Of a DNA stretch of 64,000 nt, positions 27,800 to 35,579 are shown one piece after another (the first letter of the stretch is position 1; every line of letters begins with the position of its first letter). Below the pieces are notes generated by a model, which saw only the letters and a list, made by a program, of their open reading frames with translations, was not told where the DNA came from and did not search any database. The position numbers and the translations under genes were made by a program. This DNA is from Candidatus Hermodarchaeota archaeon. GTDB taxonomy: Archaea > Asgardarchaeota > Hermodarchaeia > Hermodarchaeales > Hermodarchaeaceae. The stretch is taken from positions 1-64,000 of the forward strand of contig JAEOUH010000029.1 of NCBI GenBank assembly GCA_016839365.1. Direction: 5' to 3'.

Positions 27800-28348
27800 A
27801 TGTCATCCCGAACTGGGCGAATTCGAAGTCTTATCCGTTTAGTGACAAGACTTCGTCGTTCGGGAAGGGTTGCATTGCTTATCGATGGACCCAATGTTCT
27901 TCGTCGCGAATTTGATATACGATTAGATGACTTAAAGAGCCAGATAGAGGAATTTGGAAAAATCGGTGTCGCAAAGGTCTATTTGAACGAACGCGCTAGC
28001 ACGAAACTGTTAGAGGCTATATCGAATAGTGGGTTTACACCTGTTGTTACTACTACGGATGTGCATCTCCACATGGCAATGGAATCAATGGATTTAGTCC
28101 TAGGTGATGCTACTAAATTACTCGTGATCTTTAGTCGTCATGCAAGGACCGCTCCAATCCTCCGCCGAGCACGTGAACATGGCTTGGAAACGATAGCGAT
28201 TGGGTTTGAACCAGGTTTTAGCGTAGCGGTGCAAAACGCTGCAGACCATGTTCTCCGTATTGACCGCCCATTACGCAGCCAAATCCAACGTGTGAAAGGC
28301 AAAGAGAAGAAAGAGAAGAAAGATGAGGATTGGCAATTTGAGGAGTGA
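27800..28348 (+). CDS. NYN/PIN domain protein (TIGR00288-like), catalytic residues apparently degenerate
   Basis: VALLIDGPN...KVYLN...GFS.A.QNAAD; DVH and SRHART in place of DVD and RDADF. Confidence 0.8.
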   Translation: MSSRTGRIRSLIRLVTRLRRSGRVALLIDGPNVLRREFDIRLDDLKSQIEEFGKIGVAKVYLNERASTKLLEAISNSGFTPVVTTTDVHLHMAMESMDLVLGDATKLLVIFSRHARTAPILRRAREHGLETIAIGFEPGFSVAVQNAADHVLRIDRPLRSQIQRVKGKEKKEKKDEDWQFEE

Positions 28349-28404: not shown

Positions 28405-29115
28405 TTAGTCTAGATGGTTGCGAATTTCCTCATTGGTAAGTTGGGTGAAGACGCGTTTCTCTGTGTCGACGATGGAGATTTCCATAGCTTCCTCGTCGAG
28501 TTTCTCTTCGACAACCTGCCGAAGGGTGTCAATGCATAATTTCACTGCTCCAGGCATCAGCTTAATTGCTGGTTTATAGTGCTTTGCTAAATATTCTCGC
28601 GCTGCTTCTGAATTGTATCCGATCGCTGTGGCACGCCAACTCCAGTAAGAGCCAGAGGGGTCGGTGGTGAAAATTTGTGGACCCTGTGAATCCACTCCAG
28701 CAATCAAGAGAGAGACACCAAAGGGACGAATGCCACCAACTTGAGTGTAATTTTGTTTCAGGTCGCAGACCTTTTTGGTTAGTACCTCAACATCGATGGG
28801 TTCCCCATAGGTGATTTGGTTGATCTGGCTTTGGACACGAGCATAGTCAACGAGGACACGAGCATCAGCGTGGAGTCCAGCGATTGCACAGCCAATGTGC
28901 TTGTCAACCACGTAGATTTTTTGGATTTGTTCTAAATCCATTAGGGGAGAAGTGGCCTCTTTATGGACGCCAATCACGGCACCATTTGTTGCTTTAACTC
29001 CAATCGCGGTTTTGCCACGACGGACCGCTTCTAACGCATATTCGACCTGATATAAGCGACCTTCGGGGCTGAAAATCGTGATCGCCCGGTCATAGGCGAG
29101 ACTTCTTTCCATCAT
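28405..29115 (-). CDS. psmA: 20S proteasome alpha subunit
   Basis: YDRAITIFSPEGRLYQVEYA, RPFGVSLL, TDPSG motifs. Confidence 0.97.
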   Translation of the reverse strand: MMERSLAYDRAITIFSPEGRLYQVEYALEAVRRGKTAIGVKATNGAVIGVHKEATSPLMDLEQIQKIYVVDKHIGCAIAGLHADARVLVDYARVQSQINQITYGEPIDVEVLTKKVCDLKQNYTQVGGIRPFGVSLLIAGVDSQGPQIFTTDPSGSYWSWRATAIGYNSEAAREYLAKHYKPAIKLMPGAVKLCIDTLRQVVEEKLDEEAMEISIVDTEKRVFTQLTNEEIRNHLD

Positions 29116-29156: not shown

Positions 29157-29164
29157 TTATAAAA
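29157..29164 (-). promoter_or_regulatory. TATA box candidate for psmA
   Basis: TTTTATAA on the minus strand about 40 nt upstream of the psmA start. Confidence 0.5.
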
Positions 29165-29229
29165 GTTTGTCTCTGTCATCAATACAGAAGCTCCAGAGCT
29201 GCCGCTTCCAAGATGACGAACTTTTCTGA

Positions 29230-29500
29230 ATAAAATCCACAGGAGTGAAGCCCCTATAGGTAAAAATAACTTCACCCCAAGTGTAACAAGTATCCCTATT
29301 GCTACCTTCGAAGGAAGGGCGCCAAGAGGATTTTAAATAGCCGTAGACCCAAAAGGAGGATACCTTTTCCAGTTTTTCCCCGCATGGAAATACCTCCAAT
29401 AAGATGTAGCAGATTAACGGCGCCTTTTAATCCTTTGCGATTCACTGTAAAGGTCCCAAAGACCTTGGGGAGCTCGCAACGGGAAGTATTTCCAGGAATT
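29230..29500 (-). ncRNA. Highly structured RNA (structured small-peptide mRNA or ncRNA)
   Basis: At least 6 stems; four A.C mismatches on + become G.U pairs on -; possible long-range pairings. Confidence 0.5.
29302..29385 (-). CDS. 27-aa cationic hydrophobic peptide MRGKTGKGILLLGLRLFKILLAPFLRR (type I toxin-like)
   Basis: GGAGGT RBS 6 nt before the ATG at 29385; TAG at 29302-29304; RBS sequestered in a stem. Confidence 0.5.
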   Translation of the reverse strand: MRGKTGKGILLLGLRLFKILLAPFLRR

Positions 29501-29573
29501 TGACGTTTTCTGATTAAACACAAGGCTTTTACTCAACTATTGCTTTCGTGCGGATTAGTGGATGTGATTGAGT

Positions 29574-30890
29574 ATGGCACGTACACGCGTAATCATCATG
29601 GGCGCAGCAGGACGCGATTTCCATAACTTCAACGTCTATTTCCGAGACAATGAGGAATATGAGGTCGTCGCCTTTACTGCCACACAAATTCCTGGTATTG
29701 AAGAACGCATCTACCCATCAGTTCTGGCTGGGAAACTCTATCCGAAAGGCATCCCAATTTATTCAGAAGAGATACTCCCTGCCCTCGTCAAAGAGCATAA
29801 CATTGAACAAGTCATTTTTGCCTACAGCGATATTGCACACCTGGACGTGATGCATTTGGCATCCTGGGTGCATTCAATGGGCGCTGATTTTCGGTTGATG
29901 GGGCCAGCCACAACGATGCTGAAAAGCAAGAAACCAGTGGTAGCGATTTGTGCTGTCCGTACAGGGTCGGGAAAGAGCCAAACAAGCCGCCGCGTTGTGG
30001 AAATTCTCCGAAACAAAGGGTTGAAAGTGGTTGTGATTCGGCACCCGATGCCATATGGTGATTTAGCCAAACAAATCTGTCAACGCTTTGAGACAATTGC
30101 TGACCTCAAGAAGCACAAAACGACCATCGAGGAAATGGAAGAATATGAACCTCATATCGACCGAGGCGCGATTGTGTTTGCAGGTGTTGATTATGGGAAA
30201 ATCCTCGAAGAAGCCGAAAAAGAAGCCGATGTCATTGTGTTCGATGGTGGTAACAACGACTTCCCATTCTATCAGCCTGATATTCATATTGTGATTGCCG
30301 ATCCCCATCGCGCAGGTCATGAGGTAATGTATCATCCTGGTGAGACTAACCTGCGAATGGCAGATGTTGTCATTATCAACAAAATTGATACTGCTGAACC
30401 AGAGTGTATTGACCAGGTTCGGCGTACTATCCGGGTAGTGAATCCCCGCGCCATTATCATCGATGCCGCCTCACCCCTCTTTGTTGATGATCCTGATGCG
30501 ATTCGTGGAAAACGTGCCCTTGTAATCGAGGATGGTCCTACATTGACTCATGGTGAAATGGACATTGGTGCTGGATGGGTGGCTGCAGAAAAGTATGGTG
30601 CGGCGGAAATCATTGATCCACGACCGTATGCAGTGGGGTCGATAAAGGATACTTTTGAGAAGTTTAGCCATCTGAGTGAGATTCTTCCAGCCATGGGCTA
30701 TGGAGATGAGCAGGTTAGAGAACTTGAAGAAACTATCAATGCTATTGACGCAGAAGTAGTTGTTATAGGTACTCCTATCGATTTAGGTCGAGTTGTTAAA
30801 ATTAAGAAGCCGGCAGTACGCGTGAGGTATGAACTCCAAGAAATTGGCAAACCCACTCTTGAGGATGTCTTCAAAGGGTTTCCCAAATAA
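29574..30890 (+). CDS. arcE: Arginine synthetase ArcE-like protein (COG2403, often annotated as cyclic 2,3-diphosphoglycerate synthase/GTPase)
   Basis: GAAGRDFHNFN, AVRTGSGKS P-loop, RHPMPYG, DGGNND, EDGPTLTHG motifs. Confidence 0.75.
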   Translation: MARTRVIIMGAAGRDFHNFNVYFRDNEEYEVVAFTATQIPGIEERIYPSVLAGKLYPKGIPIYSEEILPALVKEHNIEQVIFAYSDIAHLDVMHLASWVHSMGADFRLMGPATTMLKSKKPVVAICAVRTGSGKSQTSRRVVEILRNKGLKVVVIRHPMPYGDLAKQICQRFETIADLKKHKTTIEEMEEYEPHIDRGAIVFAGVDYGKILEEAEKEADVIVFDGGNNDFPFYQPDIHIVIADPHRAGHEVMYHPGETNLRMADVVIINKIDTAEPECIDQVRRTIRVVNPRAIIIDAASPLFVDDPDAIRGKRALVIEDGPTLTHGEMDIGAGWVAAEKYGAAEIIDPRPYAVGSIKDTFEKFSHLSEILPAMGYGDEQVRELEETINAIDAEVVVIGTPIDLGRVVKIKKPAVRVRYELQEIGKPTLEDVFKGFPK

Positions 30891-33497: not shown

Positions 33498-35369
33498 CTA
33501 TATGCGTTCCAGTGGAGTAATTCCAAGCAGCTCGAGGGCGTTGGAAAGGACTTGACGACTGAGGTCAACGAGAAGGAGACGAGCATTCTTGAGCCCAGGA
33601 GTTTTGGCTTTGAGAACCGGGCAGTGATTGTAGAACGCGTTGAAGGCAACGGAAAGGGCGTAGGTGTACTCGGCGAGATGAAAGAGTTCGATGCGAGTTC
33701 CCCAGACTTCGCGGTGGATTCCCTCTACGACTTCAAGGATGAGGGCTGGAAAACGACCAAGGAGCTTGATGAGTTCGGTTTCAAACGGGCTGGATAAGCT
33801 GCTGAGGCGCGCTGTTTTCGGAGCCGCCTCCTTTTGGAGGATGGAGCTAGCCCTGGCATGAGTATACATCAAGTAGGGAGCCGCGTTGCCATCGAAGTTG
33901 AGCATATCTTCCCATTTGAATACGATTTGTTTTTCGACTGCAACTTTGAGGAGGGCGTATCTGATTGCAGCTGATCCAACGGCTTCAGCGACTTGGCGGA
34001 GGAAGCGGGCATCTGCCTCAGGGTTACGCTTCTTCACTTCTTTTCGTGCACGACGTGTGGATTCTCGAAGGATATCGTCGGTGCTTTGACCTATCCATGT
34101 GCCTTTTCTTCCAGAGATTCGAGCATCTGGGAGTGTTACAAACTCGTAGGCAAGATGATAGTAGTTGGCTGATGCCTTGATATAGCCGAGAGTTTCCAAG
34201 GTGAGGTAGACTGTGCGTTGCTCTTGGCTTTGAGGCATGCCGATGACATTATAGATCACATCGGCGGGACGGTAGTGACCCTCTTCTCCCTGTTGTTTAG
34301 TGGTCCAAATCTCGTTTTCACGGGCTTTGGGGCTCTTGAATGGTTGGTATTTGAAGGGATCTGGAATGACTCCAAATTTCCAAAAATGGAACACTATGTC
34401 TTTTCCAGTATAAGTGGCGACTCCATCAGAGCGGACCAACACTTTTTCGGTATCCTTCAATTGCTTGAACTCTTCATAGGCACCAAGGTCCACGATTACA
34501 CAACCCGCTTTTTCACCCCCTGTGGGTCGGGATGCCGTGGGCGCTTCCATGATTTTCTTCAGACCCTTAGCGAATAAGCCAGAATGCGCAATATCGCTTT
34601 CCCACACTAATAGATCATGATGAACGTTAAGCCGATCATGGGTTTTATGATGAGCTCGTAGCACCCGTTCCGACATTTTTCGGGCTTCCGAGGCCATTTC
34701 ATTGTACCCTTCTTCCATGAGCTTCAAGTATTGGCGAACCTGTGCTTCGTCGTATTTGTCTTGGGCATCCACATAGAGGCGGCCAATCACTTGGTCATAT
34801 TTCCCTTTGTACTCTGACGCATCTAGGTGTTTTAGCGCCCAATACGCAACAGCGATTTGGAGTCCGAGGTCATTGATGTAATCCATTCGAGTGACATCAT
34901 ACCCGACGGCTTGCATAAGTCGGGCAACTGTGTCACCAAGGACGGCGTTTCGGGCATGGCCGATATGCAAGGGGTTGTTTGGATTCACCGCAGGATATTC
35001 CACAACGACATGCTTTCCTGCAAACCTCTTTGTTTTGCCATATAAGGGTCCGTCGGCTTGGATCGCTTCGACGACCAATCGGCGATAGGGAATGATGTTG
35101 ATGTAGAAATTCACATATGGTCCGTGAGCAACGACCTGCTCAATGAGTGGAAACTGGATGGGATCGAAGAACGCTAGTTCCTTAGCGATTTCTGCTGGGC
35201 TCTTCTTAAGCTGCTGAGCCAAGTGGAAGGCTGCGGTGCAAGCTAAATCCCCATGTTGTGGGTCTCCGGGTATTTCGAGGTATCTACTAAGGTCTTGTCC
35301 ACTGGCTAGATGTAGCGCTTTAATGACCTGTTTCTTGAATTTTGCCCAAGGATTTTCGACGTTCACCAT
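33498..35369 (-). CDS. argS: Arginine--tRNA ligase
   Basis: NPNNPLHIGHARN (HIGH), RISGRKG, YLMYTHARASSIL, FYNHCPVL motifs. Confidence 0.96.
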   Translation of the reverse strand: MVNVENPWAKFKKQVIKALHLASGQDLSRYLEIPGDPQHGDLACTAAFHLAQQLKKSPAEIAKELAFFDPIQFPLIEQVVAHGPYVNFYINIIPYRRLVVEAIQADGPLYGKTKRFAGKHVVVEYPAVNPNNPLHIGHARNAVLGDTVARLMQAVGYDVTRMDYINDLGLQIAVAYWALKHLDASEYKGKYDQVIGRLYVDAQDKYDEAQVRQYLKLMEEGYNEMASEARKMSERVLRAHHKTHDRLNVHHDLLVWESDIAHSGLFAKGLKKIMEAPTASRPTGGEKAGCVIVDLGAYEEFKQLKDTEKVLVRSDGVATYTGKDIVFHFWKFGVIPDPFKYQPFKSPKARENEIWTTKQQGEEGHYRPADVIYNVIGMPQSQEQRTVYLTLETLGYIKASANYYHLAYEFVTLPDARISGRKGTWIGQSTDDILRESTRRARKEVKKRNPEADARFLRQVAEAVGSAAIRYALLKVAVEKQIVFKWEDMLNFDGNAAPYLMYTHARASSILQKEAAPKTARLSSLSSPFETELIKLLGRFPALILEVVEGIHREVWGTRIELFHLAEYTYALSVAFNAFYNHCPVLKAKTPGLKNARLLLVDLSRQVLSNALELLGITPLERI

Positions 35370-35503
35370 TATCTGAATCCTACTGAGAGTACGCGAAGTC
35401 AGCCTTTTTTCTCTTTCGTCAAACACTGATGGAAGTTACCTTCTCAAGATTAAGAACGAAATCATTAAAATAGGGTGTATCGTAACTCGCCTGAATCAAT
35501 TGT

Positions 35504-35579
35504 GGGCCCGTGGCCAAGTGGATACGGCGACAGGCTTCGGACCTGTAGATCCGGGGTTCAAATCCCTGCGGGCCCGCCA
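35504..35579 (+). tRNA. tRNA-Arg(TCG), intronless, CCA encoded
   Basis: GGGCCCG/CGGGCCC acceptor stem, anticodon arm ACAGG-CTTCGGA-CCTGT, GGTTCAAATCC T-arm, terminal GCCA. Confidence 0.97.

Follow-up and report, generated by a model that had tools for sequence, protein, structure and literature searches.

A genus-specific, unannotated micropeptide gene of Hermodarchaeota with a predicted self-masking mRNA

Does a short intergenic region of an Asgard archaeal chromosome encode the toxin partner of a toxin-antitoxin locus of type I, or some other membrane micropeptide under tight control? The question was raised by the initial annotation of a 64,000-nt stretch of DNA (contig JAEOUH010000029.1, positions 1–64,000; hereafter the window), which described a hidden 27-codon open reading frame (ORF) on the minus strand with a sequestered Shine-Dalgarno (SD) sequence. 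All type I systems reported to date are bacterial (PMC12390103, PMC8309996), and a case in archaea would therefore be notable.

A short coding sequence and its conservation within one genus

The elements of the reading frame were all found as annotated. On the minus strand, the SD GGAGGT (29397–29392) is followed by a 6-nt spacer, an ATG at 29385, 27 codons and a TAG stop at 29304–29302, the ORF and its stop occupying 29302–29385. A purine-rich SD was present in all homologues, and GGAGG is enriched genome-wide at −10 to −20 of start codons. The 27-aa ORF indeed forms the tail of a 73-aa ORF with a TTG start (29523–29302), but the longer ORF was rejected as the true product, since in-frame stops occurred 2–21 codons upstream in 11 of 14 cases.

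The DNA comes from an Asgard archaeon of the Hermodarchaeota whose psmA is 91–98% identical to those of Hermodarchaeota MAGs, including Ca. Hermodarchaeum yapensis. The genus was represented by 15 genomes (the host and 14 others), and 17 distinct loci were compared, 14 from genomes and 3 from metagenome copies. Of the 14 other genomes, 13 carry a homologue that has its own SD, ATG and stop; in the fourteenth, the contig ends 26 nt before psmA. Six metagenome contigs also carried the gene and contributed the 3 additional distinct copies. In 14 of the 15 genomes the gene is single-copy and lies between an ArcE-like gene and psmA, and a protein profile and an RNA model both returned one copy per genome (14 genomes). 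In the proposed search for further copies, the ORF and its SD were kept in relatives, always as one copy, and no paralogue was found in the host genome by blastn, HMM, covariance model or a scan of SD-led small ORFs. The gene was not found in 4 genomes of the sister genus or in 381 further Asgard genomes, weak HMM matches in other Asgard genomes being discarded because they were without a start codon or lay antisense to genes. In the sister genus the arcE and psmA promoters stand back to back, which represents the empty site.

Selection was evident in the peptide frame, where pN/pS was 0.34–0.38, indicating purifying selection, and where second codon positions were 91–94% conserved. In four of the five other frames pN/pS was ∼1 or more and stops occurred, in 8–14 of 14 sequences. 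Indels among the homologues were in-frame only, and none of the copies was broken. Frame, start, SD and hydrophobic pattern were retained at all 17 distinct loci, at DNA distances of up to 54%, and the distances between modules tracked those between psmA genes (Mantel r 0.86). Judged by this comparison, conservation of the ORF is far beyond chance.

Neighbouring genes come and go on both flanks; the peptide unit stays whole. Downstream on the same strand lies psmA (proteasome alpha; 28405–29115; Pfam PF00227/PF10584), with its own TATA element at 29164–29157, a promoter that the sister genus also keeps at its empty site. Upstream and divergent, on the plus strand, is a P-loop gene (29574–30890; TATA at 29526–29533) for which only P-loop Pfam matches were obtained; it is probably ArcE, the putative arginine synthetase identity being suggested by PMC11032458. 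Within 6 kb, this ArcE-like gene is accompanied by arginyl-tRNA synthetase (33498–35426) and a tRNA-Arg (35504–35579), and an NYN-domain protein (27800–28348; TIGR00288-like, below the cut-off) is convergent on psmA. In the genus, the motif TGATGA lies 10–11 nt upstream of the TATA at both the psmA and arcE promoters (29157–29181 and 29511–29533); it is mutated in the window's arcE copy, and the two motifs may once have formed a common regulator site that the insertion divided. Insertions are frequent in the arcE-psmA spacer, a hotspot for them: other genes separate the peptide gene from arcE at 4 of the 17 loci, and a SAM methyltransferase lies upstream at two (L029 and L035). At 6 of the 17, a gene for a 143-aa Gly-rich membrane protein is convergent to the peptide gene (L027:1651–2079, minus strand; L029, L030, L033, L022 and L257). 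This gene belongs to a widespread archaeal family without a Pfam name, and was rejected as an immunity protein because it is not linked to the peptide and also occurs in the genus that lacks it. A 29-nt direct repeat flanking the unit in the window (D1) was not seen in relatives.

The encoded product is cationic (+7) and is predicted to form an amphipathic helix. Homologues are 24–31 aa long with net charges of +5 to +8; the core comprises 17 residues, with 1–3 Arg/Lys across the family, those at positions 15 and 18 making up one face, and the hydrophobic moment ranges from 0.24 to 0.49. The Arg codon CGG at position 2 of the peptide is invariant, and an AF2 model of a homologue shows one helix spanning residues 3–25. 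Membrane binding, with the helix either lying on the surface or spanning the bilayer, is predicted from the established properties of such helices. Comparison of the peptide with Pfam, NCBIfam and PDB returned no match at E values of up to 10, the sensitivity of so short a query being limited, and no match was found in plasmid sequences or the ESM Atlas. The exact 27-aa product is absent from 15 billion predicted proteins, a profile search of 1.84 billion cluster representatives yielded two matches only, both of them family members, and scanning with a degenerate DNA pattern gave chance matches only. The annotated picture of a hidden, conserved, cationic membrane-type micropeptide with its own SD is thus supported by comparison across the genus. 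On sequence grounds, the gene is real, unannotated and genus-specific, and it is predicted to specify a membrane micropeptide from a self-masking mRNA. It represents an Asgard micropeptide gene that is cleanly delimited, undescribed and missed by gene callers.

Predicted promoter, mRNA hairpins and predicted masking of the Shine-Dalgarno sequence

Motif inspection placed a predicted core promoter at 29423–29437 of the minus strand, composed of BRE-like purines and a TATA element (TAAAAG, 29429–29424). A TAAAAG/TATAAG box with an upstream A-rich BRE was found at −43 to −45 from the ATG at all 17 loci. A pyrimidine-purine step occurs 29 nt downstream of the TATA in 8 of 14 cases, so transcription is predicted to start near 29400 and to leave a leader of ∼15 nt; read by eye, the psmA and arcE promoters have the same TATA-to-start geometry. 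Further upstream, a 15-bp box (TTGCG-N8-AA, 29465–29479) provides a candidate regulator-binding site. Its TTGCG is invariant at the 17 loci and always lies 50–51 nt before the TATA, the intervening spacer sequence being otherwise free; this fixed spacing suggests that a protein binds there. The box loosely resembles the 15-bp box of Ss-LrpB (PMC1802622). A genome-wide regulon was rejected, as no second strong copy with a TATA was found in the genome. The complement of the box also occurs just upstream of the TATA (inverted repeat I18, 29437–29481) in this species and the relative closest to it, an arrangement absent in other relatives.

Towards the other end of the transcript, hairpin H2 (29294–29329) spans the last codons and the stop; it was seen in the RNAalifold consensus, with changes on both sides, and in single-sequence folds. 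Hairpin H3 (29240–29280), with 12 bp, marks the predicted 3′ end of the mRNA and shows covariation: 97% of cells were paired and 3 pairs had changed on both sides, compared with 39–52% paired in slid controls. Its covariation score was matched by 1 of 500 shuffles, a figure to be read with the fact that kin sequences are not independent. H3 is followed by a conserved pyrimidine/U-tract (29228–29236) with a terminator-like match, which is the predicted terminator. No Rfam match was obtained for the region. At all 17 loci, the G.U pairs and energies of the hairpins favour the mRNA strand over the antisense strand. Sequence comparison across the genus has established coding selection, promoter-like boxes at fixed spacing, a covarying 3′ hairpin and restriction to one genus.

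The initial annotation attributed sequestration of the SD to an upstream anti-SD. The segment at 29482–29494 (minus strand) does pair with 29385–29397 over 13 bp, with one G.U, and this helix, although picked post hoc, is the longest among 428 GGAGG..ATG sites in the genome (the next being 11 bp). It did not, however, hold up as a lock. Only this species and a strain 99% identical to it retain the element intact; the closest species shows it with 3 mismatches, and the remaining twelve genomes have lost it. It also lies 53–65 nt upstream of the TATA; since it sits upstream of both the TTGCG box and the TATA, it falls outside the predicted mRNA, and is probably not functional. The RNAfold-type check that had been suggested gave a fold for the region that was not significant against shuffles (z −1.45; z −0.46).

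The second anti-SD, TCCTCC inside the ORF, was located at 29360–29355 (codons 9–11), and it is this element that proved to be conserved and is predicted to mask the SD. As a CUCCU-type sequence (29354–29361), it would, on the nascent mRNA, close a hairpin, H1, that covers both the SD and the start codon. When nascent 60-nt transcripts were folded, the SD paired with codons 8–12 at all 17 loci, with probabilities of 0.67–0.99. Codon 10 is CTC at 16 of the 17, against a usage of 23%, and where the SD differs between lineages, the ORF has altered to match (L033, L034/L035, L028 and L038); the permutation test of SD/anti-SD co-evolution, comparing cognate with swapped partners, gave p 0.06. The median energy needed to open the SD was 8.3 kcal/mol in the family versus 5.0 kcal/mol for 285 SD-led genes (∼90th percentile), and every one of the 17 copies exceeded the genome median; the window's own copy required 5.3 kcal/mol, at the 52nd percentile of SD-led genes. 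In the full mRNA, the opening energy was not above that of synonymous recodings, because Leu, Ile, Phe and Pro codons are pyrimidine-rich anyway. Pairing of the SD with the 3′ tail also appears in the consensus fold; at 5 of the 17 loci it has a probability >0.4 and is preferred on the full mRNA. Across the sequences compared, the in-ORF anti-SD is the conserved one, and its strength appears only moderately above background.

Possible roles of the locus

The broader reading that the initial annotation offered as a fallback, a tightly controlled membrane micro-protein, fits best with the conservation, the promoter boxes and the in-ORF masking. We propose, with moderate confidence, that the gene encodes a conditionally expressed, self-masked membrane modulator governed by its promoter and mRNA fold, with no dedicated antitoxin RNA. 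A stand-alone chromosomal gene would have been inserted between arcE and psmA in the forebear of a single Hermodarchaeota genus, with vertical inheritance ever since. An mRNA of ∼175 nt would start near 29400; during its emergence codons 9–11 would pair with the SD, damping translation, and a protein on the TTGCG box would set the timing of transcription. The product would be a hydrophobic helix of 17 residues, striped with Arg/Lys and placed between two basic ends, binding the cell's own anionic membrane from inside, most likely in stress adaptation or the regulation of a membrane protein. Self-masking might be explained, we propose, by the peptide being harmful in excess. Given the single-copy, vertical conservation, a housekeeping or stress modulator would fit at least as well as a toxin.

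An alternative is a toxin-antitoxin system of type I, where the mRNA of a membrane toxin is neutralised by an unseen antisense or trans-acting RNA, as in AapA/IsoA or TisB/IstR-1. We consider this possible but doubtful. The size, basic ends and amphipathic core of the peptide match the description of AapA1 (PMC8309996), and the in-ORF CUCCU anti-SD lies ∼27 nt after the start, as in AapA3 (aSD2 at codon 9; PMC6733600). The 5′-3′ pairing of SD and tail, the structured stand-alone mRNA, the variable intergenic spacer and the insertion into an empty site also fit, and the TATA can be read on both strands, while that of psmA could fire backwards. Nevertheless, no antitoxin candidate survived testing by DNA comparison. 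Among the loci, the only conserved opposite-strand TATA-like boxes were the gene's own box read backwards and that of psmA; no conserved antisense TATA was found inside the ORF, where a loose pattern occurs at 6 of the 17 loci and is clear in 3. A divergent small RNA transcribed from the two-way TATA was rejected since it showed no conserved pairing and would not overlap the mRNA. Conservation of the hairpins is confined to the sense strand, the lock is only moderate, no family match was obtained for the peptide, and RNase III was not found in the genome (84% complete). Tandem or multiple copies and a patchy or mobile distribution are common, though not required, in type I systems (PMC2887945), but here there is strictly one copy, at the same site in 14 genomes, vertically inherited, never broken and without a plasmid match. 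It is rather unlikely that the locus is an archaeal counterpart, the first of its kind, to type I toxin systems, with an AapA-style sequential anti-SD lock acquired by convergence and with silencing, in the absence of RNase III, by an RNA that escapes DNA comparison. If the peptide were both toxic and RNA-silenced, type I toxin-antitoxin logic would extend to archaea; if not, the gene would still specify a new lineage-specific membrane regulator. With its predicted promoter, leader, operator-like box and terminator all defined by the comparison, the locus is well suited to testing whether archaea use SD occlusion as a control.

Two other sets of sequences were considered during the search for partners and relatives of the locus. 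A C-rich RNA on contig C46 pairs with this species' leader at −28.8 kcal/mol (top 0.4%), and was rejected as a trans antitoxin on covariation and distribution: in relatives it ranks at the 3rd–37th percentile (permutation p 0.70), shows no compensation where the leader differs, and occurs in the genus without the peptide. This RNA (L371:310–580, equivalent to G000 C46:48210–48480; homologues L374–L385) is ∼270 nt long, strongly folded and non-coding, has an invariant core and several CCUCC motifs, and is conserved in 13 of 19 genomes, which include members of both Hermodarchaeota genera; it has no Rfam match and looks like an undescribed RNA family. Peptide cassettes on contigs C5, C33 and C85 were rejected as relatives, being an unrelated family. 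They encode separate, unannotated basic peptides of 45–50 aa with an ER-x3-G-x2-NP motif, in five copies (G000 C5:20708 and a unit 518 nt away, L372; C33:4441; C33:5295; C85:33438), some of which adjoin Lrp-like regulators.

A peptide released to act on other cells as an antimicrobial or surfactant, like phenol-soluble modulins or cationic amphipathic AMPs, would agree with the net charge of +5 to +8, the amphipathic helix and the gene's own predicted promoter with its regulator-like box. This is improbable, however: no linked exporter, protease or immunity gene and no leader peptide was found, masking of the SD would limit the yield, and the core shows little diversifying change. It is more improbable still that the folded RNA is the main actor, as in a dual-function small RNA, with the peptide secondary. 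Codons 2 and 10 are under synonymous constraint, three hairpins are conserved and pS is lower in codons 1–11 (0.38, versus 0.70 in codons 12–25), all in line with such a role, but codons 12–25, the part least constrained as RNA, show clear amino-acid selection (pN/pS 0.34), Rfam returned no match, and no homologue retains the RNA while losing the ORF.

An arginine-sensing or other leader peptide, attenuating psmA or acting with the ArcE-like gene, would agree with the co-oriented position upstream of psmA, the terminator-like hairpin that follows, the invariant CGG at position 2 and the proximity of the ArcE-like gene, argS and tRNA-Arg. It is nonetheless very improbable, as psmA has its own conserved promoter, present also at the empty site, a convergent gene intervenes between the peptide and psmA at 6 of the 17 loci, and others separate it from arcE at 4; moreover, arcE is divergent, CGG is not a rare codon (17%) and no conserved antiterminator was seen. 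Finally, that conservation here concerns a DNA or RNA element in which the open frame is incidental is scarcely credible: the ORF is short and the support for a gene comes from comparing sequences, but frame, start, SD and hydrophobic pattern persist at 17 of 17 loci, and stops interrupt all but one of the five other frames.

Comparison with known systems

A self-masked membrane modulator would have counterparts among bacterial membrane micropeptides of the stress-induced or regulatory class, such as SpoVM, which are of 25–31 aa, single-copy and monocistronic, with a membrane-binding helix. YohP and Prli42, as cited in the accessible text of a preprint (bioRxiv 10.1101/2025.10.28.685009), share these features; they show no homology to the present peptide, and a self-masking mRNA is not their defining trait. 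From the same text, the spRNA24/asRNA94 pair of Methanosarcina mazei provides an archaeal parallel: a small RNA encoding a small, lineage-restricted membrane protein, sP24, overexpression of which protects cells under stress rather than killing them (bioRxiv 10.1101/2025.10.28.685009). In M. mazei, unlike here, an antisense RNA has been shown, no SD-masking fold is reported in that text, and the phylum is different.

In anatomy the locus resembles the toxin gene of type I systems, a class to which it is, on present comparison, unlikely to belong. As in the Fst/Ldr group (Fst, LdrD, SprA1), a small cationic membrane peptide would be made from a structured mRNA ending in a hairpin. The PXXXGC motif of that group (PMC8309996) is absent here, with a Pro near the C-terminus instead, and the locus has neither direct repeats conserved on its flanks nor a convergent gene for an antisense RNA, nor a Pfam match. 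The AapA/IsoA systems of Helicobacter pylori differ in that here there is no sequence match (Pfam, NCBIfam, PDB) and no conserved antisense promoter inside the ORF, the predicted leader is ∼15 nt long with no upstream anti-SD, and a single copy is driven from an archaeal promoter. The likeness to these systems lies in the peptide, since AapA1 and AapA3 are also of ∼30 aa with an amphipathic helix between basic ends (PMC8309996), and in the mRNA, since in AapA3 an anti-SD within the ORF near codon 9–10 masks the nascent SD, with possible later 5′-3′ pairing (PMC6733600). The layout of aSD2 and aSD3 in H. pylori aapA3 (PMC6733600) is paralleled here as a resemblance only.
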